Source of the DNA: Cereibacter sphaeroides 2.4.1
Lineage (GTDB): Bacteria; Pseudomonadota; Alphaproteobacteria; Rhodobacterales; Rhodobacteraceae
NCBI RefSeq assembly: GCF_000012905.2
Contig: NC_007494.2
Coordinates: 480,001-512,000 of the forward strand
Direction: 5' to 3'
DNA: 32,000 bases
This document shows, one piece after another, positions 7,009 to 27,763 of the stretch. The translations under genes and the position numbers were made by a program. Under the pieces are notes generated by a model that did not search any database, had not been told where the DNA came from, and saw only the letters and a list, made by a program, of their open reading frames with translations. How positions within the stretch are numbered: position 1 is the first letter of the stretch; every line of letters begins with the position of its first letter.

Positions 7009-7806
7009 CCAGCTCCGGGCTCCCGGTCGAGGTGACATGAGGATGCTGGCTGGCAGGACGAGAGTGTCCGGATGGCTGCGCGGGCGCGAGGCCCCTGCGG
7101 GCCGGGCCAAGGCCGCCCCGCAGGAAACACCTGCCGCAAGAGGAGAGGTGAGGTCAAGCTGCCCGAAGGCCATCCGAGGGCGGCGCGCCCGCCTGAAGCC
7201 GCCCGATGGGGTGCCTTCCGCTTCGGGGGCCGCCCGCAAGGGGCGGGGTCCCCGCGGCCATACGGAGACCCCGGAGCTGCCGCTCCGGCCGCAAATCACC
7301 GAAGCCGCAGATCCTCCCTTCGGAAAGCTAAACCACATTCCCGTCTCCATAAAAAGATCATCATGCAATCGGCCTTGCAGAGGTCCGATGGTGGCCGCGC
7401 GTCCCTTTCCCTCAAGGCGCCCGCATCCGTCCTCCTGGTTGAAAAAGACCTTCACCCCGGGGTTGCGGCAGCACCCGGAGCCGCCGCAGCCCTGTCAGCG
7501 CCGCATGTTGGAGCGAATCGACAGCGCGCATCCAGCAGCCACTGGGAGGCCGTGCCTGCCCGACGCTCACCCCGCTTGGGAAGCGTCCGTGCCCTCTCGG
7601 CACGCCGAAAGCCCGCGGAGCTTCCGATGCGCCATGACTGCCCTTGCGACGGTCCGAGGTGCGGGAAAGGCTTGCGCCCGGCGGCGGAGGCGTCTCTGGT
7701 TGGGGCAACGGCAGATGGCTCTGCCTCCCGGCGCGGGCCGCGATCCCGCGCCTGGAACCCGTCAGATACCGCCGGCCCGTGTCCGGCCCCACCCGGAGGA
7801 GACCCC

Positions 7807-13443: not shown

Positions 13444-14022
13444 CTAGCCGCCAAAGCCGCGCGAGGCGCCGGTGCTGCCGAAGCCGCCGCGCGAGGCGGG
13501 GCTCGCGACAGACATCGGCGGCTTGCCGATGGTGGAGGGCGGCCGGGCAAAGGTGCTGGTGCCGAGGCGCGCCGAGCCCGTGTTGCTGGAATAGGTGCTC
13601 GTGCGGGCGGCATTTGTGAACTTGCCGTCCGCGGTGCGGTAGAGGGGCTGCGCGGAAGCCACGCCCCGGCCGCTGAGCATGCTGCCGATCAGATAGCCGG
13701 TGAGCAGCGGCATGAAGATGCCGCCCATCCCGCTGCCGCCCGTCACCTCGCTCTCGCTGCCGCAGCCGCCCGCGCCATGTTCCGCCTCGCAGGCGGCGAC
13801 GCTGTCGTAGCGGGGCGCGGATTCGACATGGAGCTGCTGCGCCTCGGCAAAGGATTTGTCGCATTCCTCGACGCTGAAGAGCCCGCCGTTGCTCGCCGCG
13901 GCGCGGCAGCTCTCGACATCGGGGAAGGCCTGGGCCTCGACCTCCTCCTCGCGGCAGCCGGCCAGCGCGAAGGAGGCGGCGCCGAGGATGACGAGGGCAA
14001 CGGTGCGCGAGCGGCGTCTCAT
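13444..14022 (-). CDS. DUF1190 (UPF0441) lipoprotein, YgiB-like
   Basis: MRRRSRTVALVILGAASFALAGC carries a lipobox. Downstream: ...ESCRAAA...APRYDSVAACEAEHGAGGC...GGIFMPLLTGYLIGSMLSG...QPLYRTADGKFTNA...RGGFGSTGASRGFGG. This mirrors E. coli YgiB as I recall it. ATGA overlap with the upstream ygiC-like gene. Confidence 0.8.
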   Translation of the reverse strand: MRRRSRTVALVILGAASFALAGCREEEVEAQAFPDVESCRAAASNGGLFSVEECDKSFAEAQQLHVESAPRYDSVAACEAEHGAGGCGSESEVTGGSGMGGIFMPLLTGYLIGSMLSGRGVASAQPLYRTADGKFTNAARTSTYSSNTGSARLGTSTFARPPSTIGKPPMSVASPASRGGFGSTGASRGFGG

Positions 14023-15221
14023 GCTTTCTCCTCCCGGACGAAATGCGGCTTGAACCGCGACAGATCCTGCGTGATGCGCGAGCGATCCTCGCGCAGCCCC
14101 ATGCCCACGCAGGTCTCGCCCACGATCCAGGCGCCGACGACGGGGCGGAAGCCGCCGAAGACCGGCAGGGGATGATAGGCCTGAACGATCCGCGGATGCC
14201 CGGCATAATCGTCGCGGGGCGAGGCCTCGGTGACCTGCCCCTCCTCGAGGATCGAAATCGAGGCGCCCTCGCGCGAGAAGAGCGGCTTGAGGACATGGCC
14301 CCGCCGCAGCGTCTCTGCCGCGCGGTCGACCGCCGGTCCGCCCGCCGCGACCTCGGCCTCGAAGAAGGCCGGCAGCAGGTTCGGATGGCCTTCGAACATC
14401 TGCCAGAGCACCGGCAGCAGGCCCTTGTTCGACAGGACCGCCTTCCAGGCGGGCTCCAGCATCAGGCAGTTCGAGCTGCGGATGTGGCGCGCATAATCGT
14501 CGCGCAGCAGGTCTTCCCAGGGGTAGAGCTTGAACAGCGTCCCGATCACCCGGTTGTCGGCATCGAGGAACTGGCCCTCCCGACTGAGCCCGATTTTCTC
14601 GAGATCGGAATAATGCGCGCCGAGGCCGGCGGCGCGGGCGGCCCAGCCCATGCATTCGACCGTGGCATAATCCTCGGGATTGCCGCCCACGGCGGTGAAA
14701 TGCAGATCGGTGTCGGGCGGGAAGAGGCTGCGGAAGCGCTCGACCAGGGCTTCGTGGATGCCGTTGAACTGGTCCGATCGCGCGGGGAGCACGCCCGCCT
14801 CGATCTGGTCCTGCAGCCAGCTCCACTGGAACGAGGCGCTTTCATAGAGCGAGGTCGGCGTGTCGGCGTTGTATTCGAGGAGCTTCGACGGCCCCTGCCC
14901 GTCATGGGCCAGATCGAACCGGCCATAGATCTCGGGATCGCCGCGCTGCCAGCTTTCCGCGATCAGGTCGCGATGCTCCGCCGGAATGGCCAGCCGGTCG
15001 AGCAGCTCCTCGCTGCCGATGATGTGGCCCGCCGCCTCGCGGCACATCGCGTGGAGCGCCGTCGCGGGATCCTCGATCATCTCCTCGACCTCGGCCAGGC
15101 CGAAGCCGTAGGCCGACGTCTCATCCCAATAGGGCTCGCCGTGCATGTCGGCGAAGGTGAAGCCGAGTTCCTCGGCGCGGTCGCGCCAGCCGGGGCGCTC
15201 GGGCAGGTCGATCCTCTCCAT
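14019..15221 (-). CDS. Glutathionylspermidine-synthase-like ATP-grasp protein (YgiC/YjfC family)
   Basis: 400-aa ORF: MERIDLPERPGWRDRAEELGFTFADMHGEPYWDETSAYGF...LLEYNADTPTSLYESASFQWSWL...GWAARAAG...LMLEPAWKAVLSNKGLLPVLWQMFEGHPNLLPAFF...VLKPLFSREGASI. This is characteristic of the GSP-synthase pre-ATP-grasp/ATP-grasp family. Confidence 0.9.
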   Translation of the reverse strand: MERIDLPERPGWRDRAEELGFTFADMHGEPYWDETSAYGFGLAEVEEMIEDPATALHAMCREAAGHIIGSEELLDRLAIPAEHRDLIAESWQRGDPEIYGRFDLAHDGQGPSKLLEYNADTPTSLYESASFQWSWLQDQIEAGVLPARSDQFNGIHEALVERFRSLFPPDTDLHFTAVGGNPEDYATVECMGWAARAAGLGAHYSDLEKIGLSREGQFLDADNRVIGTLFKLYPWEDLLRDDYARHIRSSNCLMLEPAWKAVLSNKGLLPVLWQMFEGHPNLLPAFFEAEVAAGGPAVDRAAETLRRGHVLKPLFSREGASISILEEGQVTEASPRDDYAGHPRIVQAYHPLPVFGGFRPVVGAWIVGETCVGMGLREDRSRITQDLSRFKPHFVREEKA

Positions 15222-15590
15222 GACCCCTCACCTATGCGTTCGCGCGCCCCGGCGCCAGTGGCTGCGGTGGCATTCCCGGCCGCGACGAGAGGTGCCGGAT
15301 CGGCCGCCCCGCGTGGAGGGAGGCCGGCGGCATGGCGCGCATCGCCCGAGGCGCGGTAGAGGGAATCGGTTTGCACGCTTTCAAGTTGTGTTACCATCGC
15401 CTCATTCGAGCAGATGGCCGCCTTATTCATCCGGCCAAAGACCCCTCTTGCGAACGCTACGCTGACACGAAGCCAATGGGCGGCCCCTGCCGCCCCATCG
15501 CATGGTCATTTTCATTTGGAGTATTGCCGATGCTGTTCAAGCTGGGCCACGGCCAGAACATTCGTATCTATCCGCGCAGCAGAAGCCTCC

Positions 15591-15597
15591 GGGGGGG
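15591..15597 (+). repeat. G7 homopolymer separating an SD-preceded 24-codon ORF (15530..15604) from the peroxidase reading frame
   Basis: Read directly as cctccgggggggcgggtga. Loss of one G would fuse the MLFKLGHGQNIRIYPRSRSLRGG frame to the peroxidase frame. Confidence 0.9.
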
Positions 15598-15674
15598 CGG
15601 GTGACACCGCCACCGACAGCGTCCCCATCGACACGGTCTGCGCGGAAGCCTCGGACGAGGCGGACCCGCACGGC

Positions 15675-17399
15675 ATGAGGCCCGCCTATCCGCTTCCCAA
15701 CCCCGACCCGCAACCCTCTCCTGGGCTCGAGCCGCGCGAGGTATTCCGCTTCTACTTCCGCAATGCCCCCGAGGTGGCGGCCGATCCCGAGATCGAGGGC
15801 AGGATCCTCGCGCTGGCCGACGCCATGGCCGAGGCGAGCCTGACCCAGGCCGATCCCGAAGGAGAGTCCAGCATTCCGGCGGTCTTCACCTACTTCGGCC
15901 AGTTCATCGACCACGACATCACGGCCAATACCGACCGCGACGAGCCCGGCTTCGACATCGACCGGGCCGGCATCGACCCGCAGCCGCGCGATCTGGTGGA
16001 AAAGGAGAAGCTGAACCTGCGCAACGGCCGGCTGAACCTCGACAGCCTCTACGGGGACGGCCCCGGCCAGTCGCCCGCGGCGGCGAAGATGGAAGCGGCG
16101 ATGCGCGACCCCGCCGATCCCGCCAAGATGCGCCTCGGGCCGGTGCAGCCGGTCAGCAACGGATCGCCGGGCTTCATCCGGCCGGATCTGCCCACGGACA
16201 ACCTGGCCGACATCCCCCGGATCGGCGCCGCCATCGACGACGGCAGCCTGACACTGGAGGAGGCCCGCGAACTGATCGGCGAGGCCGACGACGCCAAGCT
16301 GCGCCTCTCCGCGCTGATCGGCGACGGGCGCAACGACGAGAACCTGATCGTGGCCCAGCTGCACCACAGCTTCCTGCGGCTGCACAATGCGCTGGTGGAC
16401 AAGCTCCGGGCCGACGGCGCGGCCGCGGGCGACGACGCGCTCTTCGCTCTGGCGCGGCAGCACACGACCTGGATCTACCAGTGGATGGTGGTGAACCTCT
16501 TCCTGAAGGCGGTCTGCGACCCCTCCGTCGTGGAGGATGTGCTCGAGAAGCGCGCCCCGCTCTACCGGGGCTTCTTCGAGGCGCACAAGGCCTCGGTGCC
16601 CGAGGGAGCCCTGCCGATGCCGCTCGAGTTCAGCGTGGCGGCCTTCCGCTACGGCCATTCGATGGTGCGGGGCGACTACGACTACAACCGCAGCTTCGGC
16701 GTGGCGGCCGACGGCACGCCGCAGACCCGCGCCAGCTTCGAGCAGCTCTTCGCCTTCACCGGCGGGGGCAACATGTCGGGCTTCGGGCTGACCTCGCTGC
16801 CCGACAACTGGATCATCGAGTGGGATCGGTTCATCCGCGCCGATGGCCCGCCCGGACGGACGGCCCGCAAGATCGACAGCCGGCTCGCGCTGCCCTTGAA
16901 GGAGATGCGCAACCCCGCCCCGGGCGTCAGCGGGATCATGCGCCATCTGGCGGCGCGCAACCTGCGCCGGGGCTATGTGTTCAATCTTCCCGACGCGCAG
17001 GCCATCCTTTCCGAACTGGCCTATCAGGGCACGCGGATCGAACCGCTCACGGCGGATGAGATCGCCTCGGGCGCGACCGGTGCCGCGATCCGCGACGGCG
17101 GCTTCGACAGCTCGACGCCTCTGTGGTTCTACGTCCTGAAAGAGGCGGAGGTGAGGGCCGAGGGCAACCATCTCGGCCCGCTCGGCAGCCGTCTGGTGGC
17201 CGAGACGCTGATCGGCCTCCTCGTGACCGATCCGTCGAGCTACCTCCAGCAGGGAGCCTTCGGCAGCTGGACACCGGACGAGGCGGCGCAGCCGAAGGGC
17301 GAGCCGATCACGAGCTTTGCCGCCATGCTCGTGGCCTGCGGCCTGCTCGCGCCCGTGCCTGCGGCGCCGGCGGCGCCCCAGCCGGCCGCCACGTTCTGA
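15675..17399 (+). CDS. Animal-type heme peroxidase (peroxidase-cyclooxygenase superfamily, MPO/LPO-like active site)
   Basis: Distal motif FGQFIDHD (His codon 15912..15914). GDGRNDEN carries the catalytic Arg (16338..16340) and Glu (16347..16349). Proximal motif AAFRYGHS (His codon 16656..16658). The start is uncertain: ATG 15675 is used here, the ORF is open from 15414, and a frameshift-fused start at 15530 is possible. No signal peptide is visible with any of these starts. Confidence 0.88.
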   Translation: MRPAYPLPNPDPQPSPGLEPREVFRFYFRNAPEVAADPEIEGRILALADAMAEASLTQADPEGESSIPAVFTYFGQFIDHDITANTDRDEPGFDIDRAGIDPQPRDLVEKEKLNLRNGRLNLDSLYGDGPGQSPAAAKMEAAMRDPADPAKMRLGPVQPVSNGSPGFIRPDLPTDNLADIPRIGAAIDDGSLTLEEARELIGEADDAKLRLSALIGDGRNDENLIVAQLHHSFLRLHNALVDKLRADGAAAGDDALFALARQHTTWIYQWMVVNLFLKAVCDPSVVEDVLEKRAPLYRGFFEAHKASVPEGALPMPLEFSVAAFRYGHSMVRGDYDYNRSFGVAADGTPQTRASFEQLFAFTGGGNMSGFGLTSLPDNWIIEWDRFIRADGPPGRTARKIDSRLALPLKEMRNPAPGVSGIMRHLAARNLRRGYVFNLPDAQAILSELAYQGTRIEPLTADEIASGATGAAIRDGGFDSSTPLWFYVLKEAEVRAEGNHLGPLGSRLVAETLIGLLVTDPSSYLQQGAFGSWTPDEAAQPKGEPITSFAAMLVACGLLAPVPAAPAAPQPAATF

Positions 17400-17449
17400 G
17401 GCCCGGCCGTGGCGCCGGAAGGCGCCACGGCCCCTGCCGCCGCACCGCC

Positions 17450-19408
17450 ATGGCCCCCGTCCCAGCGTCCCCCGGCGCCGCTCCGATCCGGCGCGACCCC
17501 TCCGACCTGCGCGATCAGGTCTATCTGCCCTCGCTGAGGCCGCTCGCGCCCCGGACGGAGCTGCCGTCCTGCCTTTCAGGCGGCACCCTCCTGCCCCGCG
17601 ATCAGCAGGAGGCCGAGAGCTGCGCCGGTCAGGCCCTCGCGGCGCTGATCGATCTGCAGCACCAGAGCGCGGGCGCGGCCACGGCGCGCGTGTCCGCGCG
17701 GATGCTCTACCGGATGGCGCTGGTGCAGGACGGAAGCGCGGGCGGCGGGGTGGCCTCGCTCCGCTCCGTGCTGAAGGGCTTCTACCATTACGGCGTCTGC
17801 CCCGAGAGCCTCTGGCCCGACGGGAGCGGTTCGGATGCGCTGACCGCCGAACGGGCGAAGGCCGCGCGCGGCGTGACGCTCGGCGCCTACTATCGCGTGC
17901 TGCCCGGCCTGAACGACTGGCATGCGGCGCTGACCGATGTCGGCGCGCTCCTGGTTTCGGCCGAGATCCACGAGGGCTGGGACTGCCCCTTCGATCCGCA
18001 AAAGCCCCGCGACCGGCAGGGCCTCATAGTGCCCGTGCGCAGCGGCGGCACCGGCCACGCCTTCCTTGTGGTGGGCTATACCGAGGCGGGCTTTCTGGTC
18101 CTGAACTCCTGGGGAGCTGCCTGGGGCGGTTACGACGGGCGGCCCGGGATCGCGCTCTGGCCCTACGAGGACTGGGCCGAGACGGTCATGGACGCCTGGG
18201 TGCTGAGGCTGGGGGTGCCCGCGCCTGCCGCCTTCGCGCAGGCGCGCGGGCTCCATGGCCTCGGCTTCGACACAGGCCCCCTCGGCGCGTCGCAGGCCGC
18301 CTGCCACCGGCTGCTGGGCCATTTCGCCCATCTCGACGACGGCCGGCATGTCGACAGCGGCAGCTACGCCTCGTCCCGCGCCTCGGTGGAGGAGACGGCC
18401 CGCTGCCTCGAGGCGCGGCCGCGCCCCGTGCTCCTGTCGGTGGCAGGCTCGCTCTTCGGCCTTCAGGCCGGCATCGCGCACGAGATCCGGCGCCGCCCGA
18501 CCGTCGAGGCCGTCGGTCTCTATCCCTACACAGTCTTCTGGTGCAACGACGCCTTCGACAGCACGAGCCTCGTGCTCGATCACCTCTTCGAGAAGGCGGT
18601 CCAGAAGGTCGGCCCCTTCGACCCGACCCTCGATGACACGATCGAGCGCGATACCGCCCCGATCGGCCGCGCCTTCTGGCGGGACGTCAAGGCCGCGGCA
18701 TGGCGCGCGGGCAGCCACCGCCGCGACGGCCGCGAGGGCGATGCCGCCCATCTCTTCGACCGGCTGGCCGCGACGGGCGCGCCGCTGCATCTCCTGACCG
18801 ACGGCGCCGGGGCGATCCTCCTCGGCCGGTATCTGCGCTCGCTGGAAGAGGGCGCTCTTCCGCCCGATGAGGCCGCCCGCAGGCAGAGGCTGCGCGAGAG
18901 GTTCTTCGCCGCCACGGCCTCGCTCACCCTCGTCACGCCGCCCCTCACGCTCGCGGCCTTCGACGAGGCCTTCGGGCCGCTTATCGACCATCTGCCCGAG
19001 GGCCGCGCGACGCTCTGGGTGCCGTCGCGGGGCCTCGATGCGAAGCTGCATGTCGGCGCGTACGCGCGCTCGATCCTGCATCTGATCTGCCACGGGTTCG
19101 AACGCGGCGAGGAGGATGGCACGGACGCGCCCACGCGGAGCTTCGTGGGCATGCCGCAGCATGTGACGGGGCTGCCCGGCCGGCTGACGCCGCGGCTTGC
19201 CAAGCTGGCCGTCTGCCGGATCGCGCAGCCCGACGCGTCCCGGCCCCGCTTCACGCAGGCCGACGTCAGCCTGAGTGCCGACTGCCACCGGCGGACACTC
19301 GACAGGATCCGGGCCATTGAGGCCCAGCGACAGGGAGGAACGGATGACGGAGAAAATCACGCTCGAGCAGCTGCAGGAGATGGCGGCCGATCCCGGAACG
19401 CGTCCTGA
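17450..19408 (+). CDS. Papain-like cysteine protease (peptidase C1 fold, residues ~15-255) fused to a ~390-aa C-terminal domain of unknown function
   Basis: From ATG 17450. Q(52)..ESC(58)AGQA supplies the oxyanion Gln plus catalytic Cys (codon 17621..17623). GH(203)AFLVVGY has the His codon at 18056..18058. LN(219)SWGAAWG has the Asn codon at 18104..18106. This is the complete papain triad context. There is no signal peptide, and I do not recognise the C-terminal 390 aa. Confidence 0.85.
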   Translation: MAPVPASPGAAPIRRDPSDLRDQVYLPSLRPLAPRTELPSCLSGGTLLPRDQQEAESCAGQALAALIDLQHQSAGAATARVSARMLYRMALVQDGSAGGGVASLRSVLKGFYHYGVCPESLWPDGSGSDALTAERAKAARGVTLGAYYRVLPGLNDWHAALTDVGALLVSAEIHEGWDCPFDPQKPRDRQGLIVPVRSGGTGHAFLVVGYTEAGFLVLNSWGAAWGGYDGRPGIALWPYEDWAETVMDAWVLRLGVPAPAAFAQARGLHGLGFDTGPLGASQAACHRLLGHFAHLDDGRHVDSGSYASSRASVEETARCLEARPRPVLLSVAGSLFGLQAGIAHEIRRRPTVEAVGLYPYTVFWCNDAFDSTSLVLDHLFEKAVQKVGPFDPTLDDTIERDTAPIGRAFWRDVKAAAWRAGSHRRDGREGDAAHLFDRLAATGAPLHLLTDGAGAILLGRYLRSLEEGALPPDEAARRQRLRERFFAATASLTLVTPPLTLAAFDEAFGPLIDHLPEGRATLWVPSRGLDAKLHVGAYARSILHLICHGFERGEEDGTDAPTRSFVGMPQHVTGLPGRLTPRLAKLAVCRIAQPDASRPRFTQADVSLSADCHRRTLDRIRAIEAQRQGGTDDGENHARAAAGDGGRSRNAS

Positions 19409-21209
19409 GGATCTCGCCCCCTATTTCCGCACGCGAGATGCGGCCTCGCCGTTCGATCCGCAGATCGAGATCGACGAGACGCGGGTCATGGTGCCCGACA
19501 CGGCCGAGGCGGCCAGCCGCTCGGCGCTCGTGCTCAACAGCGCCAACTGGATCGAGCGGATGAAGCGGCAGACGCGCTTTCACCGCCGCCTGTCGGAAGG
19601 CAACTACACCGGCCCGATCATCGTCGAGGAGGGCGACAGCTGGTTCCAGTATCCGCTCCTGCTGCGCGACGTGATCGACGTGCTGATGGACCGCTATGCC
19701 ATCTTCTCGCTGAGCGCCGGCGGCGACACGCTGGAAAACATGGCGACAGGGGCGCAGTATCGGAAGGCGCTGGAAGAGACGCAGGCCAGCATCCTGCTCC
19801 TGTCAGGGGGCGGCAACGACCTTGTGGCCGACGGGCAGCTGGCCGACCATCTGCGCCCCTTCGATCCGAACCTCCGCCCCGCCGACTATCTGCTCGGCAG
19901 CTTCGACCAGCTGATCGCCCGGTCGATGGCGCTCTACGACCGCATCTTCGCCGATGTGGCGCGCCGCTTTCCGAAGGTCGATGTGATCTGCCACGGTTAC
20001 GACTACACCCTGCCCCGCATCCGCGGAAAGTGGCTGGGCCAGCCCATGCAGGCGCGCGGCATTGCGGATCCGGCCCTGCAGGCCTCCATCGCCGTGGTCA
20101 TGGTCGACCGGCTGAATGCCGAGCTGGCCCGCCTCGCCCGCCGGCATCCGCGGGTGCATCACCTCGACCTGCGCGGCCGCGTGGAGCGCGATCACTGGAA
20201 CGACGAGCTCCATCCCGACGACAGCGGCTATGCCGCGGTCGCCGCCGTCTTTGCCGAACGGATCGACGCTCTGACGCGCCGCCCGCGCGGGGTCCCGCGC
20301 GGCGCGGCGGCAGGCGGCCCGGCGCCGGAGGCCGCGCCCGCCCTCGTCCAGCCGCGCCCGATGGCCCTCTCGCTTCATGTGGGGGTGAACAGGGTCGATC
20401 AGGCGCATTACCGCAACTTCGTGCAGGATCTCGAATTCTGCGTGAACGATGCCGAGGCGATGCGGGATCTGGCGGTCCAGCGCGGCTACGAGACCCGCTT
20501 GCTGACGGACGCTCAGGCCACGCGCGAGGCGCTGCGCGGGGCGATGACCGATGCGGCGCAGCAACTGGAACCGGGCGGGATCTTCCTGATGAGCTATGCC
20601 GGGCACGGTGCCCAGATCGGCGACTTCAACGGCGACGAGGGCGACGGCCCGGACCGGGACCGGCTGGACGAGACGCTCTGCCTGCACGACGCCATGCTCG
20701 TCGATGACGAGCTCTACCAGCTGTGGGCCGCCTTCCGCGAAGGCGTGCGGGTGGTGGCGGTCTTCGATTCCTGCCATTCGGGCAGCATCCTCCGGGCGAG
20801 CGCCAATCGCCGCACCGACCGTGCCGGCCGCACGGGCCGCGTGCGCACCATCTCGCTTGGGGCGAGCGTCCAGATCTACCGCGCGAACCGCGCCTTCTAC
20901 GACGGGTTGCCCTCCTCGATCCTGCCCTCCGACAGCGCGGTCCTGACCAAGGAGCTCACCTATCCCGTCAGCGCCTCCATCCTCCAGATCTCGGCCTGCC
21001 AGTCGAACCAGACCGCCGAGGAGGCCTTCGGCAACGGGCTCTTCACCGAGCGGCTGATGGCCACTCTGGCCGAGGGCAGCGGCCGGCTGGGCTACAGCGG
21101 CTTCACCGACCGGATTGCGGCGCGGATGCCGCCCGAGCAGACGCCGAAGTTCTGGCGCGTGGGGCGGCCCGATCCGGTCTTCGAGGCGCAGACCGTCTTC
21201 TCCGTCTGA
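19344..21209 (+). CDS. Fusion protein: N-terminal SGNH/GDSL hydrolase domain + C-terminal caspase-like (peptidase C14) domain
   Basis: ATG 19344 with strong SD GGGAGGAA.
- SGNH blocks: VEEGDSWF (Ser99, codon 19638..19640), LLSGGGNDL, and DELHPDD (Asp287/His290).
- Caspase dyad: LMSYAGHGAQ (His421, codon 20604..20606) and VAVFDSCHSGS (Cys477, codon 20772..20774), plus LSLHVGVNRVD...CVNDAEAM at the domain start.
The gene overlaps the upstream gene by 65 nt. Confidence 0.85.
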   Translation: MTEKITLEQLQEMAADPGTRPEDLAPYFRTRDAASPFDPQIEIDETRVMVPDTAEAASRSALVLNSANWIERMKRQTRFHRRLSEGNYTGPIIVEEGDSWFQYPLLLRDVIDVLMDRYAIFSLSAGGDTLENMATGAQYRKALEETQASILLLSGGGNDLVADGQLADHLRPFDPNLRPADYLLGSFDQLIARSMALYDRIFADVARRFPKVDVICHGYDYTLPRIRGKWLGQPMQARGIADPALQASIAVVMVDRLNAELARLARRHPRVHHLDLRGRVERDHWNDELHPDDSGYAAVAAVFAERIDALTRRPRGVPRGAAAGGPAPEAAPALVQPRPMALSLHVGVNRVDQAHYRNFVQDLEFCVNDAEAMRDLAVQRGYETRLLTDAQATREALRGAMTDAAQQLEPGGIFLMSYAGHGAQIGDFNGDEGDGPDRDRLDETLCLHDAMLVDDELYQLWAAFREGVRVVAVFDSCHSGSILRASANRRTDRAGRTGRVRTISLGASVQIYRANRAFYDGLPSSILPSDSAVLTKELTYPVSASILQISACQSNQTAEEAFGNGLFTERLMATLAEGSGRLGYSGFTDRIAARMPPEQTPKFWRVGRPDPVFEAQTVFSV

Positions 21210-21296: not shown

Positions 21297-21959
21297 ATGC
21301 GGATTCTGATCGTCGAGGATGATCCGGTGCTGGCGGACGGGCTGCAGGTGGGCCTCCGGCTGGCGGGCTTCGTGCCCGAAGCGGTGGGCACGCTGGAGGA
21401 TGCGCGCGCGGCGCTGGATGCCGGCCGGTTCGAGGCGATGGTGCTCGACCTGATGCTGCCCGACGGCTCGGGGCTCGAGCTTCTCGCCGAGCTTCGGGCC
21501 GCGCGCGAGGCGGTGCCGGTGCTGGTGCTGACGGCGCGCGACCGGCTCGACGACCGGGTGCGGGGGCTGGATCTCGGCGCGGACGACTATCTTGGCAAGC
21601 CCTTCGAGCTAGAGGAGCTGGCGGCCCGCCTGCGCGCCCTCGGCCGCCGCCCCGCGGCGCTGGCCACCACCCGGCCCGAATGGAACGGCGTGGCCCTCGA
21701 CCTCGCGGCGATGGAGGCCTCGCGCGATGGCCGGCCCGTGGCGCTCTCGCCGCGGGAGTTCGCGGTCCTCCGCGCCCTCATGGCCCACCCCCGCGCGATC
21801 CTGAGCAAGGCCCAGATCGAGGAGCAGCTCTACGGCTGGCAGGAGGAGATCGAGAGCAACGCGATCGAGGTCCATGTCCACAAGCTGCGTGCCAAGCTCG
21901 GGCACGGCTTCATCGAGACGGTGCGCGGCGTGGGCTATCGGCTGGCGGAGGCCTCGTGA
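21297..21959 (+). CDS. OmpR/PhoB-family response regulator (QseB/BasR-like)
   Basis: MRILIVEDDPVLADGL...MVLDLMLPDGSGLELL...VLVLTARD...GADDYLGKPF is the receiver domain. The winged-helix C-terminus is ...LSPREFAVLRALM...IEVHVHKLRAKLG...IETVRGVGYRL. ATG 21297 (GTG at 21294 also possible) follows GGAAGGGG. Confidence 0.92.
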   Translation: MRILIVEDDPVLADGLQVGLRLAGFVPEAVGTLEDARAALDAGRFEAMVLDLMLPDGSGLELLAELRAAREAVPVLVLTARDRLDDRVRGLDLGADDYLGKPFELEELAARLRALGRRPAALATTRPEWNGVALDLAAMEASRDGRPVALSPREFAVLRALMAHPRAILSKAQIEEQLYGWQEEIESNAIEVHVHKLRAKLGHGFIETVRGVGYRLAEAS

Positions 21960-23308
21960 GTTCGATCCAGCGCCGCCTGTTTCTCGTCCTTCTCGCCGCC
22001 ACCGGAGCGATCTGGCTCTCGGCCGCGCTCTGGGTCCATTCCTCGACGCGGACCGAGCTGAACCGGATGCTGGACAACCGGCTGGCCGAGGCCGCGCGCA
22101 TGGTGGGCAGCCTCGTCGACGGCGACGGGCTGCCGCTCGACACGGCGATGCAGATGGCGGCCCCCGCCCTGCCCGGCGACACGGCCCACGGCTACGCCCA
22201 CCAGCTCTCCTGTCAGGTCTGGGGACTGGACGGCACGCGGATCGCCGCCTCGTCGCAGGCCCCGGCCGAGGCGCTCTCGACCGTCCCGCAGGGCTTCAGC
22301 GAGCACGCGGCCGAGGGCATCGTCTGGCGAGTCTACACCCATTTGGACGAAGCGCGCGGCATCCGCGTGATGGTGGGCGACAGCCTGCGCATGCGCGAGC
22401 GGCTGCTGCACGACATGGTGCTGGGGCTCATGTGGCCTGCGCTCGTGGTGCTGCCGCTTCTCGCCGGCGCGATCTGGCTCAGCCTGCGCAGCGGCCTTGC
22501 GCCGCTCCGGCGCATCACCCGCGAACTCGCGCATCGCGGGGCCGACGATCTTTCGCCCCTCCATGCGCCCGCGCCGGGCGAGGTGGCGCCGGTGGTCGAG
22601 GCGCTGAACGGGCTCTTCCGCCGGGTGCAGGCGGCGCGCCAGCATGAGCAGGATTTCACGGCCTATGCCGCGCACGAGTTGAAGACCCCGCTCGCGGGCC
22701 TGAAGATGCAGGCCGAGGTGGCGAGGCGGGCGCCGGATGCCGCAACGCGCGACCATGCGCTGGCCCAGATCCGGCGCGCGGTCGACCGGTCGGACCGGCT
22801 GGTGCACCAGCTCCTCGACATGGCGGCGGTGGATCAGGGCGCGGCCGAGAGCCCGCCCCGCCCGCTCGGCCGGATCGGCGCCGAGGTGCTGGAGCTGACC
22901 CTGCCCGCCGCCCGGGCGCGCGACGTGCGGCTGACGCTCGACTGCGCGCCGGCCCTCGCCGACCGGCCGCAGCGCGATCCTGCCCTTCTGGTGGTGGCCC
23001 TGCGCAACCTCGTCGAGAATGCGGTCCATGCCAGCGCCGAGGGCGGGCGGGTGGAGCTGGCCTTCCGGCCCGACGGGGCGGGCTGGCGGGCCGAGATCCG
23101 CGACGAGGGCCCCGGCATTCCTCAGGACATCCGGGGACGGATCACCGAACGCTTCTACCGCGGCCCCACCGGCGGCGAGGGCAGCGGCCTCGGACTGGCC
23201 ATCGTCGAGGCGGCGGCCCGGCGGCTCGGGGCGCAGTTCGCGCTCCGCCCGCAGAGCCCGCGCGGCGAGGTGGCGACCCTGCTCTTTCCCGCTTCCGATC
23301 TCGCCTGA
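21956..23308 (+). CDS. Sensor histidine kinase (QseC/BasS-like, two TM helices, HisKA + HATPase_c)
   Basis: GTG 21956 forms a GTGA overlap with the regulator stop. TM1 is RRLFLVLLAATGAIWLSAALWV and TM2 is LGLMWPALVVLPLLAGAIWLSL. H-box FTAYAAHELKTPLAGL, N-box LRNLVENAVHAS, G-boxes RDEGPGIP and GSGLGLAIV. Confidence 0.9.
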   Translation: MSSIQRRLFLVLLAATGAIWLSAALWVHSSTRTELNRMLDNRLAEAARMVGSLVDGDGLPLDTAMQMAAPALPGDTAHGYAHQLSCQVWGLDGTRIAASSQAPAEALSTVPQGFSEHAAEGIVWRVYTHLDEARGIRVMVGDSLRMRERLLHDMVLGLMWPALVVLPLLAGAIWLSLRSGLAPLRRITRELAHRGADDLSPLHAPAPGEVAPVVEALNGLFRRVQAARQHEQDFTAYAAHELKTPLAGLKMQAEVARRAPDAATRDHALAQIRRAVDRSDRLVHQLLDMAAVDQGAAESPPRPLGRIGAEVLELTLPAARARDVRLTLDCAPALADRPQRDPALLVVALRNLVENAVHASAEGGRVELAFRPDGAGWRAEIRDEGPGIPQDIRGRITERFYRGPTGGEGSGLGLAIVEAAARRLGAQFALRPQSPRGEVATLLFPASDLA

Positions 23309-23485
23309 GCCGAGAGTGCGCCCTGCTGCCGCACCGCTTCGGCCGTTTCCCGGTCGGCCGGACAGGCCCTCCATCCGAAAGATCCTGTAAATCCGTCCGA
23401 TGGATGATGCCCGCCACCGGCGCCAAGGTCTATGGGTTCCGCAGTGGCTTCCGGCGCAGCAACCATGCGCGAAAGGGATGGATGT

Positions 23486-25045
23486 ATGAGGGTGACGATC
23501 AGAACCAAACTGGCCGCGGCATTCACCGTGGTTTTCGTCATGGCGGGGTTGGCGGTGGCGCTCGCCCTGGTCCAACTGGGGCGTGTCGACCAGCGCATGA
23601 CCGAGGTCATCGACGAGCATGTGCAGGAGGTGGTGCTCGCCCAGCGGCTCAGCATCGGGCAGTATCGCGTGATGGCCAGCATCCGCGCGCATCTGCTCGA
23701 CCGGGACTCGGACTCCGCGATCCAGATCGAGACGAGCGTGCAGGAGGGCCGGATGATCCAGCGCCGCGCCCTGCGTGCCCTGCGCGACAGACCGCAGGAT
23801 GCGGCGACAGCCGATCTCCTGATCCGCTACAACGATCTCAGGAAGCAGATCCAGCGGGTGAACAACCGCGCCATGATCCTGTCGCTCGGGGGCAACCCGC
23901 AGGGCGCGGCCGCCTTCCTCCGCGAGGCGGGCGCGGCCGGCCTCGAACGGTCGCTCGAGGGCCTGTCCGAAGATCTGGTAACCCACAAGCTCGAGCTTCT
24001 CGAGCGTGAGAAGGCCGAGGCGAATGCCGAAGGGCGCTCCGTGCTGGCGCTCGTGATGCTGATCGGGGCCCTGTCCGCAGTCGTGGGCTCGGCAGCGGCG
24101 ATCTGGATCACGCTCTCGATCGGCCGCGGGCTTCGCCGGGCCCTCGCACTCACGCGGCGGGTCGCGGCCGGCGACCTCACGGAGGGCGAAGAGGTCAAGG
24201 GACGCGACGAGATCGCCGATCTGCTCGGTGCCAGCAACCGGATGCTCGAGAAGCTGCGCGAGGTGATGGACGAAGTGTCGGGCACCGCCCGCGATGTGGC
24301 GGCGGCGAGCGGCCGGATGGCCACGGCCGCCGGGCAGCTCAAGTCCGGCACGGAAGAGCAGGCCTCGGCCACAGTCGAGGCCTCGGCCGCGGTCGAGCAG
24401 ATGGTGGGCAACATCACCCAGTCCGAGAGCAATGCCGGCGTCACCGCGCAGATCGCGGGCTCCTCGGCGGACGATGCGCGGCGCTGCGGCGTGGCGGTGG
24501 CCGAGGCCGTGCGGTCGATGCAGGAGATCGCCGAGCGGATCGGCGTGGTCCGCGAGATCGCCCGGCAGACCGACCTTCTGGCGCTGAATGCGGCCGTCGA
24601 GGCCGCGCGGGCGGGTGAGCAGGGACGCGGCTTTGCCGTCGTCGCGGCCGAGGTGCGGCGGCTCGCCGAACGCAGCGCCGAGGCCGCGGCCGAGATCTCG
24701 ACCCTCTCCGCCGGGACGGCGCGGGCCGCGGCCGGGGCCGGCGAGATGATCGACCGGCTGGTGCCCGAGATCGAGCGCACGTCGGAGCTCGTCACCGACA
24801 TCTCGGTCGCCTCGCGCGAGCTGTCCGAGGGCGCGCGGCAGGTCTCGCTCGCCATCGATGCGCTCGACCGGGTGACGCAGCAGACCGATGCGGCCTCGAA
24901 GCTGCTCGACGAGGATGCGGAGGATCTGGCGGCGCGGGCCCGGCGGCTTCTGACCAGCGCGACCTACTTCCGCACCGGACCCGCGACCGAAGGCGGTGAG
25001 GCAGAAGAGGCCGCGGCCCCCGAGGACTGGCGCGCCGTGGCCTGA
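23486..25045 (+). CDS. Methyl-accepting chemotaxis protein (paralogue of 8606..10180)
   Basis: From ATG 23486: [31 protein letters not shown] (TM1). TM2/HAMP: [54 protein letters not shown] hairpin: [40 protein letters not shown]. An alternative ATG lies at 23465. Confidence 0.9.
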
Positions 25046-25109
25046 CCCGCGCCGTTGTCGTGGGGGGCGGGCGCGGCTAGGCTTGCGGCAAGTCTCAGGA
25101 GAGCGCCGC

Positions 25110-25583
25110 ATGATCCGCACGACCATCACCCTCGACGAGGAACTCGCCGCCGAGATCGACGCCCATGTGGCGCGCTCGGCGGTGCCGAACCGCTCGGAGG
25201 CGATCCGCGATCTGGTGCGCCGCGGGCTGGCGGCCGGGCCCGCGAAACCTGCCGACACGCTCTGCATCGGCGTGATCTCCTGCGCGATGGAGCAGACCCT
25301 GCCCGAGCTTTCGCGCCGGGTGCGGGAGGCGCGTCTGGCCCGGCACGACGAGATCCGCTTCGTCACCAGCGTGCCCCTCAATCACCGCGAGACGATCGAC
25401 CTCATCGTCCTGCAGGCCAGCGTCTCGCGGATCGAGGATCTTGCGGCCCGGCTCTCGCTCGAGCGCGGGGTGCGCCATGCCACGGTCGGGCTGATCCCGA
25501 TCGAGGAGGAGGTCCAGATCCACGCGCATGACGACGAGGAGCCGCACAGCCACAGCCACCTGCGGGTGCAGCAGAACTTCTGA
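25110..25583 (+). CDS. NikR-family (ribbon-helix-helix + ACT-like domain) transcriptional regulator, atypical metal site
   Basis: ATG 25110 with SD CAGGAGAG. MIRTTITLDEELAAEIDAHVARSAVPNRSEAIRDLVRRGL is the RHH/CopG motif, close to NikR MQRVTITLDDDL...NRSEAIRDILR. The C-terminal domain contains ...ERGVRHATVGLIP (NikR has QRGVRHGHLQCLP). The tail HAHDDEEPHSHSH is His-rich. Confidence 0.8.
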   Translation: MIRTTITLDEELAAEIDAHVARSAVPNRSEAIRDLVRRGLAAGPAKPADTLCIGVISCAMEQTLPELSRRVREARLARHDEIRFVTSVPLNHRETIDLIVLQASVSRIEDLAARLSLERGVRHATVGLIPIEEEVQIHAHDDEEPHSHSHLRVQQNF

Positions 25584-27644: not shown

Positions 27645-27763
27645 GGCGCCCTCCGTGACCCACGGCTTTCCTATCTTCTCAAATAACAAAAAGCCATTTT
27701 TTCTTTCGCCTCACCCGGCGTAGACCATGCCCGAAGCGAGGGCCTGCGCGAGAGGAGCCAGAC

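Follow-up and report, generated by a model that had tools for sequence, protein, structure and literature searches.

What would a bacterial cell do with a heme peroxidase, a papain-like protease and an esterase joined to a caspase-like protease, all encoded side by side? The question is raised by three genes of Cereibacter (Rhodobacter) sphaeroides 2.4.1, which we analysed within a stretch of 32,000 nucleotides of 2.4.1-type DNA with a GC content of ~70% (NC_007494.2, positions 480,001 to 512,000; this whole stretch is termed the window). A preliminary description of this DNA, made from the sequence alone, had proposed the three genes as a candidate cell-death or conflict module. The tight packing that it reported is confirmed by the coordinates: all three genes lie on the same strand, with a gap of 50 nt between genes 1 and 2 and an overlap of 65 nt between genes 2 and 3.

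15675..17399, + strand: gene 1, predicted heme peroxidase of the An_peroxidase family, 574 aa (in the preliminary description a longer open reading frame (ORF) from 15414, 661 aa)
17450..19408, + strand: gene 2, xylellain-type C1 cysteine protease with orphan domain X, 652 aa
19344..21209, + strand: gene 3, SGNH hydrolase with metacaspase-type C14 protease, 621 aa

The conserved functional unit is the gene 2–gene 3 pair rather than the trio, and by kind we place the module among protease-associated death or lysis systems built around a metacaspase. Our favoured reading, to which we give a probability of roughly 0.35, is that the module may be a cytoplasmically stored, protease-controlled device for envelope demolition and self-lysis with swappable effectors.

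The conserved pair

When a single genome from each species was scanned with an alignment of gene 2, 251 relatives were recovered, and the locus counts given here refer to the best 80 of these. The 80 loci are nearly all from Alphaproteobacteria (Rhodobacterales, Hyphomicrobiales, Stella, Roseomonas and Amaricoccus), with a few gammaproteobacterial genomes. Adjacency was counted in the 73 loci that have at least 2.2 kb of sequence 3′ of gene 2: SGNH and C14 domains are encoded directly downstream on the same strand in 64 of them, C14 alone in two, SGNH alone in one and neither in six. The two genes can also be fused, as in an Amaricoccus genome (L023, 1332 aa), and at least two representative clusters contain both proteins end to end (P0407, 1322 aa; P0469, 1783 aa). 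Other loci divide the domains differently, pairing a C1–X′–SGNH protein (L017) or gene 2 itself with a stand-alone C14 protease. Plasmid IV of Paracoccus aminovorans encodes an 843-aa protein (L084, 5119–7650) in which a trypsin-like domain precedes a C1 domain of the gene 2 type, followed by the initial third of X; this trypsin–C1–X′ type, a protease–protease combination on the C1 scaffold, is also found in Roseivivax marinus (H15). Across 65 loci, the identity of the gene 2 domains tracks that of the C14 domain (r = 0.7–0.8). Genes 2 and 3 are inherited together and are often translationally coupled, and their domains are shuffled among themselves.

The earlier proposal of the trio as a module stands to the extent that the three genes are co-localised in other genera; its core is the pair, and the peroxidase lies upstream in 3 of the 72 species-level loci with enough upstream sequence. 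No flanking gene family is common to the pair beyond genus level in the flanks of the loci. In one Mesorhizobium genome (L089, 4362–5968), gene 2 is fragmented, with the C1 domain starting from aa 136 and X in pieces, while gene 3 is intact downstream; the pair is decaying in this genome.

Gene 2 and its orphan domain

Of the four Pfam families anticipated in the preliminary description, PF03098 (gene 1) and PF00656 (gene 3) were recovered; Lipase_GDSL was reached below threshold in gene 3, with PF13472 present in homologues, and PF00112 gave no match in gene 2. The two domains of gene 2 are as follows.

17486..18214, + strand: C1 (papain-fold) protease domain, aa 13–255, catalytic residues Q52, C58, H203 and N219
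18296..19369, + strand: domain X, aa 283–640, alpha/beta with lipase-like topology in the predicted model

Gene 2 falls in a 90%-identity cluster holding ABA81032.1 (cysteine protease). It has no Pfam match at E ≤ 0.01, missing the gathering score of PF00112, and no family in NCBIfam or PADLOC, while some of its homologues do carry PF00112. A phmmer search of the PDB matches xylellain (3OIS) at E = 1.3e-5; Foldseek matches the same structure at E = 4e-14 with a TM-score of 0.74 (target-normalised), and cathepsins also match. The AlphaFold2 model of gene 2 has a pLDDT of 89 and a pTM of 0.88, and Q52, C58, H203 and N219 are invariant across 55 homologues. The first ~255 aa are a papain-fold C1 protease despite the missing Pfam match. 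Xylellain, a C1A peptidase of Xylella fastidiosa and one of the 'short bacterial C1A peptidases', is the best match of this domain in both sequence and fold. The two have in common the Q-C-H-N set, an N-terminal 'D(L/I)RD..Y.P' segment and the lack of a signal peptide, whereas xylellain is a stand-alone protein of ~290 aa and gene 2 has domain X as an additional 370 aa, besides its coupling to the SGNH–C14 protein. Short bacterial C1A peptidases are rare in Alphaproteobacteria according to a 2023 survey (PMC10380794).

That the protease carries an orphan domain, as first described, is borne out: the C-terminal ~370 aa have no match in Pfam, the PDB or BFVD at E ≤ 1e-3. Domain X is modelled with high scores (AlphaFold2 pLDDT 92, pTM 0.90), and structure searches with it return weak alpha/beta-hydrolase and lipase matches alone. 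The position expected for the nucleophile is a glycine, G452, which is invariant in a 16-sequence alignment but falls outside the ≥90%-conserved columns of a 55-sequence alignment, where G454 is invariant. As modelled, X is a family-specific domain with pseudo-hydrolase-like features. It is rare: 1.84 billion proteins yield 171 representative clusters with X, which nearly always follows a C1 domain and starts near residue 300; a local HMM of X matched gene 2-type proteins only among all fetched loci.

Gene 3, an SGNH–metacaspase protein

The start of gene 3 at 19344 is preceded by a good Shine–Dalgarno sequence (AGGGAGGA) and agrees with the N-termini of homologues. The protein falls in a 90%-identity cluster holding ABA81033.1/Q3IWQ1 (peptidase C14) and has two domains.

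19611..20258, + strand: SGNH esterase domain, aa ~90–305, with S99, G127, N158 and D287/H290
20361..21206, + strand: C14 (metacaspase/orthocaspase-type) domain, aa 340–621, dyad H421/C477

The match of the first domain to Lipase_GDSL is sub-threshold (E = 0.009; 16.6 bits against a cut-off of 23.6), its homologues pass PF13472 (SGNH), and 18 homologues show no variation in SGNH blocks I, II, III and V (G97-D98-S99, G127, G157-N158-D159 and D287...H290). The second matches PF00656 (Peptidase_C14) with 69.1 bits (cut-off 21.4; E = 6e-19). Its dyad H421/C477 is invariant in gene 3 homologues and the acidic residues D442/E443 and D454–E456 are conserved, as is a basic residue in the linker between the SGNH and C14 domains. 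Together with the Pfam, PDB and Foldseek matches, the invariance of these residues in homologues upholds the domain calls and intact catalytic motifs of the preliminary description. The score against NCBIfam NF047832 (EACC1-associated caspase), 23.5 bits, lies below the cut-off of 140.

In the PDB, the C14 profile finds GSU0716 of Geobacter sulfurreducens (3BIJ) at E = 3e-111 and the yeast metacaspase Yca1 at E = 3e-24, and on sequence grounds the domain groups with GSU0716 and metacaspases. The alignment with GSU0716 is full-length, and the His–Cys dyad is held in common with GSU0716 and with metacaspases and orthocaspases (Yca1, MCA2, MaOC1), by analogy with which we assume an Arg/Lys cleavage specificity. 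GSU0716 is a single-domain protein, whereas in gene 3 an SGNH domain precedes C14 and an M15 peptidase often follows it. A supposed methyltransferase fusion (P0233) looks like a chimeric contig and was left unused.

Variable third partners

The feature that recurs most around the pair is a wall-degrading enzyme: a same-strand peptidoglycan hydrolase is encoded within 2.5 kb of it in 47 of the 80 loci. Peptidase_M15_3 occurs in 41 loci, in most of them as a C-terminal fusion to gene 3 that yields proteins of 850–1190 aa; a GH19-like gene lies just upstream of the pair in five (Sinorhizobium/Ensifer and Tropicimonas). Further partners are a gene combining Amidase_3 with M15_3 and a TIGR02594 protein (on pSymA of S. 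meliloti), and a PF11860 muramidase is present in one flank. Long forms of gene 3 in Aliiroseovarius and relatives (L020, 12780–13592 and 13589–14689) carry a family-less tail of ~270 aa past the M15 domain in 30 loci, followed in 13 loci by a family-less multi-TM (transmembrane) protein of 352–366 aa. Where gene 2 is missing, as in Xanthobacter (L088, 6001–11581), gene 3 is followed by a 642-aa family-less protein and a metallo-beta-lactamase-fold protein, a possible alternative partner.

The peroxidase is an addition specific to its lineage and is confined to one subclade of Rhodobacterales. It accompanies the pair in Cereibacter, Actibacterium, Loktanella, Roseovarius sp. Pro17, a 90-kb Palleronia plasmid and metagenome contigs; the linkage persists down to ~53% peroxidase identity, with gene overlaps of 4 nt in some. 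A wall hydrolase is present here too: Actibacterium and Loktanella have a fourth gene, encoding a PG_binding_1 domain (E = 1.5e-14) and a TIGR02594-like domain (E = 1e-17 and 7e-12). In Loktanella, Roseovarius and Palleronia the trio is central in a tight cluster of seven to eight genes (L003, 1137–12443; L086, 2772–14099; L090, 71–8363, with L091, 5312–5995). Besides a PG_binding_1 plus TIGR02594-like gene, the additional genes encode an S8 protease, a soluble PAP2-like phosphatase and a SARP-like winged-helix/TPR protein, as well as, in two of the three large clusters (L003 and L086), a 229-aa protein with three TM helices. The PAP2-like partner was considered as a relative of vanadium haloperoxidases and this was rejected, its PDB matches being acid phosphatases only. 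None of the extra genes of these large clusters is present in the window, which makes the trio of Cereibacter look like a pared-down version of an accessory module of Alphaproteobacteria.

The location of these enzymes bears on where they might act. No N-terminal signal, Tat motif or TM helix was found in genes 1–3 by a crude hydropathy scan, a check other than SignalP, in line with the cytoplasmic location suggested at the outset; no export signal was found in the S8 partner, and the N-termini of the GH19-like, Amidase_3+M15_3 and PG_binding_1+TIGR02594 partners look signal-less when inspected by eye. A repertoire of protease, esterase or lipase and PG-binding wall hydrolase resembles antibacterial effector sets, and the module might accordingly supply lytic enzymes that attack other bacteria or serve in feeding. 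They would leave the producers when a few of these lyse, in vesicles or through export of the holin/wall-hydrolase type. Some clusters do adjoin a membrane protein (the 3-TM protein of L003 and L086, or the 352-aa multi-TM protein of Aliiroseovarius), and a Tle1-like phospholipase lies in one flank. These membrane proteins are, however, lineage-specific, the module proteins lack signal peptides, and no immunity gene is conserved, no flank family being shared beyond genus level. Secretion-system genes (VgrG, PAAR, T1SS) are not linked to the pair, and no VgrG, PAAR or adaptor family is among the 25 most frequent flank families listed (120 matched). We consider this use of the module improbable.

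Gene 1 and its frameshift

Gene 1 matches PF03098 (An_peroxidase) with 66.1 bits (cut-off 25; E = 3e-18). The alignment is restricted to aa 300–425, and all homologues carry PF03098. The motifs FGQFIDHD, GDGRNDE and AAFRYGHS are invariant across orthologues, and D166-H167-D168, R306...E309 and H415 (numbering of the 661-aa ORF) are invariant in four of them. Bacterial An_peroxidase proteins belong to the peroxidase–cyclooxygenase superfamily, whose distal His/Arg, proximal His and Asp/Glu are also present in gene 1; we take these to have the roles, heme linkage by Asp/Glu included, that they have in the family. In chordate peroxidases the Asp/Glu positions form ester links to the heme. Gene 1 is thus predicted to be a heme peroxidase with peroxidase-type heme-linking residues, for which halogenation is a possibility.

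These motifs also bear on the idea, raised early on, that a lipase and an oxygenase might form a pathway making oxylipin-like signals. An SGNH esterase and an An_peroxidase-family protein are indeed encoded together here. The motifs of gene 1 are nevertheless of the peroxidase type (a distal D-H-D, or D-H...R-x-x-E taken together, and a proximal AFRYGH), and the Tyr-His-Trp-His motif that marks the cyclooxygenase/dioxygenase members of the superfamily is absent. The peroxidase is moreover missing from 69 of the 72 loci, and the usual third enzyme of the module is a wall hydrolase; we regard such a pathway as very improbable.

The 574-aa translation of 15675–17399 is identical to deposited ABA81031.1 ('peroxidase', Rhodobacter/Cereibacter sphaeroides). 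The start at 15414 that had been proposed was not upheld: it is strain-specific and absent from orthologues. Orthologues in three genera and distant members of the family (Sphingomonas, Caulobacter, Labrenzia and Aureimonas) begin with ML[FL]xxGHG, which in the window corresponds to an ATG at 15530 preceded by a GGAG ribosome-binding site. Two features account for the fate of this start.

15530..15604, + strand: remnant of the conserved peroxidase N-terminus (MLFKLGHGQNIRIYPRSRSLRGGG, then a stop), now a 24-codon ORF in another frame
15591..15597, + strand: run of seven G, with one extra G relative to C. johrii in a DNA alignment, giving a +1 frameshift

The extra G shifts the frame of ATG 15530 into a stop at 15602–15604 and detaches the N-terminal 48 aa, and the 2.4.1-type peroxidase therefore lacks the family-wide N-terminal segment; as judged by the conserved N-terminus of its subfamily, the window copy is incomplete. 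An intact peroxidase of 622 aa is encoded by C. johrii and by other C. sphaeroides strains. The last ~30 aa of the Cereibacter peroxidase (17309–17399) are unusually hydrophobic (Kyte–Doolittle 19-residue mean of 1.86), and the equivalent segment contains arginine in other genera.

The peroxidase family is large (2997 matches) and widespread in Alphaproteobacteria beyond the module. The alphaproteobacterial subfamily of gene 1 is cytoplasmic by sequence and has the ML[FL]xxGHG start that the window copy has lost; a literature search found no studied member of it. Family members occur alone, as in Geminicoccaceae, or in other settings, as in Caulobacter segnis (with a lipoprotein and an M10 peptidase). 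There (L082, 2285–6255 and 6448–11025) a 168-aa protein, a peroxidase homologue of 48% identity, a 474-aa lipoprotein and Peptidase_M10 are encoded in succession, beside divergent TIR_2, pNTSase1 and TPR-S genes of conflict-system-type families. The 474-aa neighbour was considered as a possible relative of gene 2 and is unrelated.

Genomic context

The module is accessory: its flanks are varied and mostly metabolic or housekeeping genes, copies are carried by rhizobial megaplasmids or chromids and by one small plasmid, and the Roseovarius copy adjoins a phage integrase. No description of the pair or the cassette was found in the literature by accession, domain combination or organism, and PADLOC-DB 2.0 gave no system match for the trio (genes 1 and 2 have no match at all), so the earlier remark that no named system has this gene combination is sustained. 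Databases annotate the families as 'peroxidase family protein', 'C1 family peptidase' and 'caspase family protein'.

Dedicated anti-phage abortive infection, in which the proteases would be switched on upon infection and destruction of the cell would precede the release of phage, would suit several observations. Gene 3, alone of the three, matches the generic PADLOC 'caspase' model (E = 6e-11); the integrase of the Roseovarius copy is accompanied by a Cap15-like gene, and VapBC and an FGE-sulfatase-type protein are encoded close to the copy on pSymA of S. meliloti; and the distribution is patchy, with plasmid-borne copies and a swappable effector. The defence-island setting envisaged in the preliminary description is nevertheless not what the flanks contain: PADLOC matches 2 of 125 flanking proteins from 32 loci, both in one locus, and the flanks are mostly ordinary metabolic genes. 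The generic hit is not accompanied by a system-level match or a recognisable sensor, the trio has the same chromosomal context across C. sphaeroides strains and C. johrii, and the pair is absent from 50,697 phage records and from IMG/VR, which leaves no sign of arms-race exchange. We consider a dedicated anti-phage role unlikely. On the same absence, a phage or prophage origin was rejected. The window holds neither a wall hydrolase nor a holin, and does not contain a phage lysis cassette; neither the cassette nor the flanks of the 32 loci yielded a gasdermin or pore-forming domain.

Within Cereibacter, the trio is inherited vertically. The GC3 of its genes (0.84–0.89) is typical for the window and dS relative to C. 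johrii is 0.14–0.15, near the 0.12 of the neighbouring response regulator, which bears out the native codon usage first noted. With dN/dS relative to C. johrii of 0.15, 0.21 and 0.22 for genes 1, 2 and 3, respectively, purifying selection still acts on all three. Such vertical inheritance and purifying selection, together with housekeeping neighbourhoods, a dedicated SARP-like regulator in the large clusters and a peroxidase family widespread in Alphaproteobacteria outside the module, are what might be seen if the module had a non-lethal cytoplasmic role on soluble substrates, whether in regulated proteolysis with turnover of wall fragments or lipid, or in a stress (oxidative) response. Against this, hydrolases of the GH19, Amidase_3 and PG_binding_1-bearing types act on the polymeric wall and not on cytoplasmic muropeptides, and the module is patchily distributed, shuffles its domains and has plasmid copies. 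A non-lethal role is in our judgement of low probability.

A possible route to self-lysis

The self-lysis reading draws together the adjacency of the pair (64/73), the fusions, the co-divergence of genes 2 and 3 and their invariant catalytic residues. It rests also on the wall-hydrolase partners (47/80), which are kept in peroxidase cassettes too; on the lack of export signals, the accessory distribution and the dN/dS of 0.15–0.22; and on a metacaspase–amidase–GDSL lipase precedent of 2012 (PMC3501461). The enzymes of the module would be made and then kept latent in the cytoplasm. A trigger would switch on the proteases, and C14 and/or C1 might cut inter-domain linkers or lift inhibition by domain X. 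The SGNH esterase might then attack membrane lipid or de-O-acetylate peptidoglycan, and the wall hydrolase (in Cereibacter, the peroxidase) would finish the destruction of the envelope or cell. The outcome would be regulated self-lysis, either an altruistic death or a means of releasing the contents of the cell.

A bolder version, which we hold more tentatively still, is that the C1–X and SGNH–metacaspase pair could be the core of an unrecognised bacterial machinery for regulated death or lysis. Proteases would gate it, no holin would be needed, and the killing modules would be exchangeable (several kinds of endolysin-like wall hydrolase or a cytoplasmic heme peroxidase that possibly makes oxidants), with domain X as latch or sensor.

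Several points weigh against self-lysis. Gene 2 occurs without gene 3 in 6 of the 73 loci and gene 3 without gene 2 in Xanthobacter; no sensor domain, NTPase domain or holin is conserved with the pair; and for the SGNH domain there is no close solved structure in the PDB. Proteolytic gating within the module is a step that we purely infer. The window version has no wall hydrolase, and lysis by that means is therefore impossible in Cereibacter, where the vertical and species-wide occurrence of the module suits housekeeping as well as it suits a death module.

Comparison with known systems

The nearest precedent is a fusion of metacaspase, Amidase_2 and Lipase_GDSL in Chitinophaga pinensis, put forward as a candidate lysis or cell-death 'weapon' (Asplund-Samuelsson et al. 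2012, PMC3501461); the same paper reports an amidase in the metacaspase operon of G. sulfurreducens. Like the module described here, the fusion brings a caspase-like protease together with a lipase or esterase and with a wall hydrolase, in its case in one protein. It differs in coming from another phylum, in its amidase family and in having no C1–X partner, and the report of it concerned a single sequence, not a conserved operon.

Phage lysis cassettes resemble the module in their signal-less endolysin-type hydrolases (M15, GH19, Amidase_3 and PG_binding_1), which need a breach of the membrane. They have a holin and spanin; the module has neither, and has proteases and an esterase in the place of the membrane lesion. 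Gasdermin–protease modules likewise set a caspase-like protease beside its possible targets, with death or lysis as the proposed outcome. They differ in that the cassette has no gasdermin or pore-forming gene and no defence-island context, and in that cleavage within the cassette is our supposition.

Neighbouring sequence in the window

Upstream of the trio are the following features.

14019–15221, − strand: glutathionylspermidine-synthase-like gene, divergent, upstream neighbour of the trio
15222..15529, + strand: spacer, presumed promoter region, separating the divergent glutathionylspermidine-synthase-like gene from the ancestral start of the peroxidase

Further upstream lie genes for a chemoreceptor, a member of the nuclease/phosphatase family and a short-chain dehydrogenase, as well as an iron-uptake set. 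On the downstream side, a response regulator of the OmpR type (ATG 21297, 87 nt past the end of gene 3) is followed by a histidine kinase and then by a chemoreceptor and NikR. No defence gene was found among these neighbours, which are of chemotaxis, two-component, NikR and metabolic types. A scan found no terminator-like site between gene 3 and the response regulator, so that the placement of a two-component system 87 nt downstream with no obvious terminator is as first described; a functional link to it was rejected, the adjacency being restricted to Cereibacter.

The GC content falls to 0.48–0.55 over 15364–15592, the third to fifth lowest values in the window. The spacer is therefore not the most AT-rich intergenic stretch, as had been claimed, since 27665–27724 and 7309–7368 have lower GC. 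A promoter scan found no sigma-70-like match in the spacer. There is no CtrA box (TTAA-N7-TTAA) anywhere in the window; LexA-like GAAC-N7-GAAC sites occur in it at chance-level frequency, with none upstream of gene 1, and no Rfam family matches it.

Two observations concern the list of reading frames. The NikR-type ORF as listed (24954–25583) overlaps the end of the chemoreceptor gene (23432–25045) by ~90 nt, and its true start is probably further downstream. Long antisense ORFs on the − strand (21935–25381, 1148 aa; 15537–17171, 544 aa) lie opposite real genes and show GC1 < GC2, the artefact pattern expected at 70% GC.

Implications

Bacterial metacaspases are numerous, and almost none has a known substrate or role. 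The metacaspase of gene 3 has an obligate and sometimes fused partner protease and recurring wall-degrading companions, which lead to testable predictions as to who cleaves whom and what lyses. The module occurs in C. sphaeroides, a genetically tractable model; as the version of strain 2.4.1 is apparently reduced, the fuller cassettes of Loktanella and Actibacterium are the better test objects. Were the self-lysis reading true, the module would represent a route of programmed lysis independent of phage holins and of gasdermins, and would place a large family of cytoplasmic heme peroxidases of bacteria in a first physiological context.

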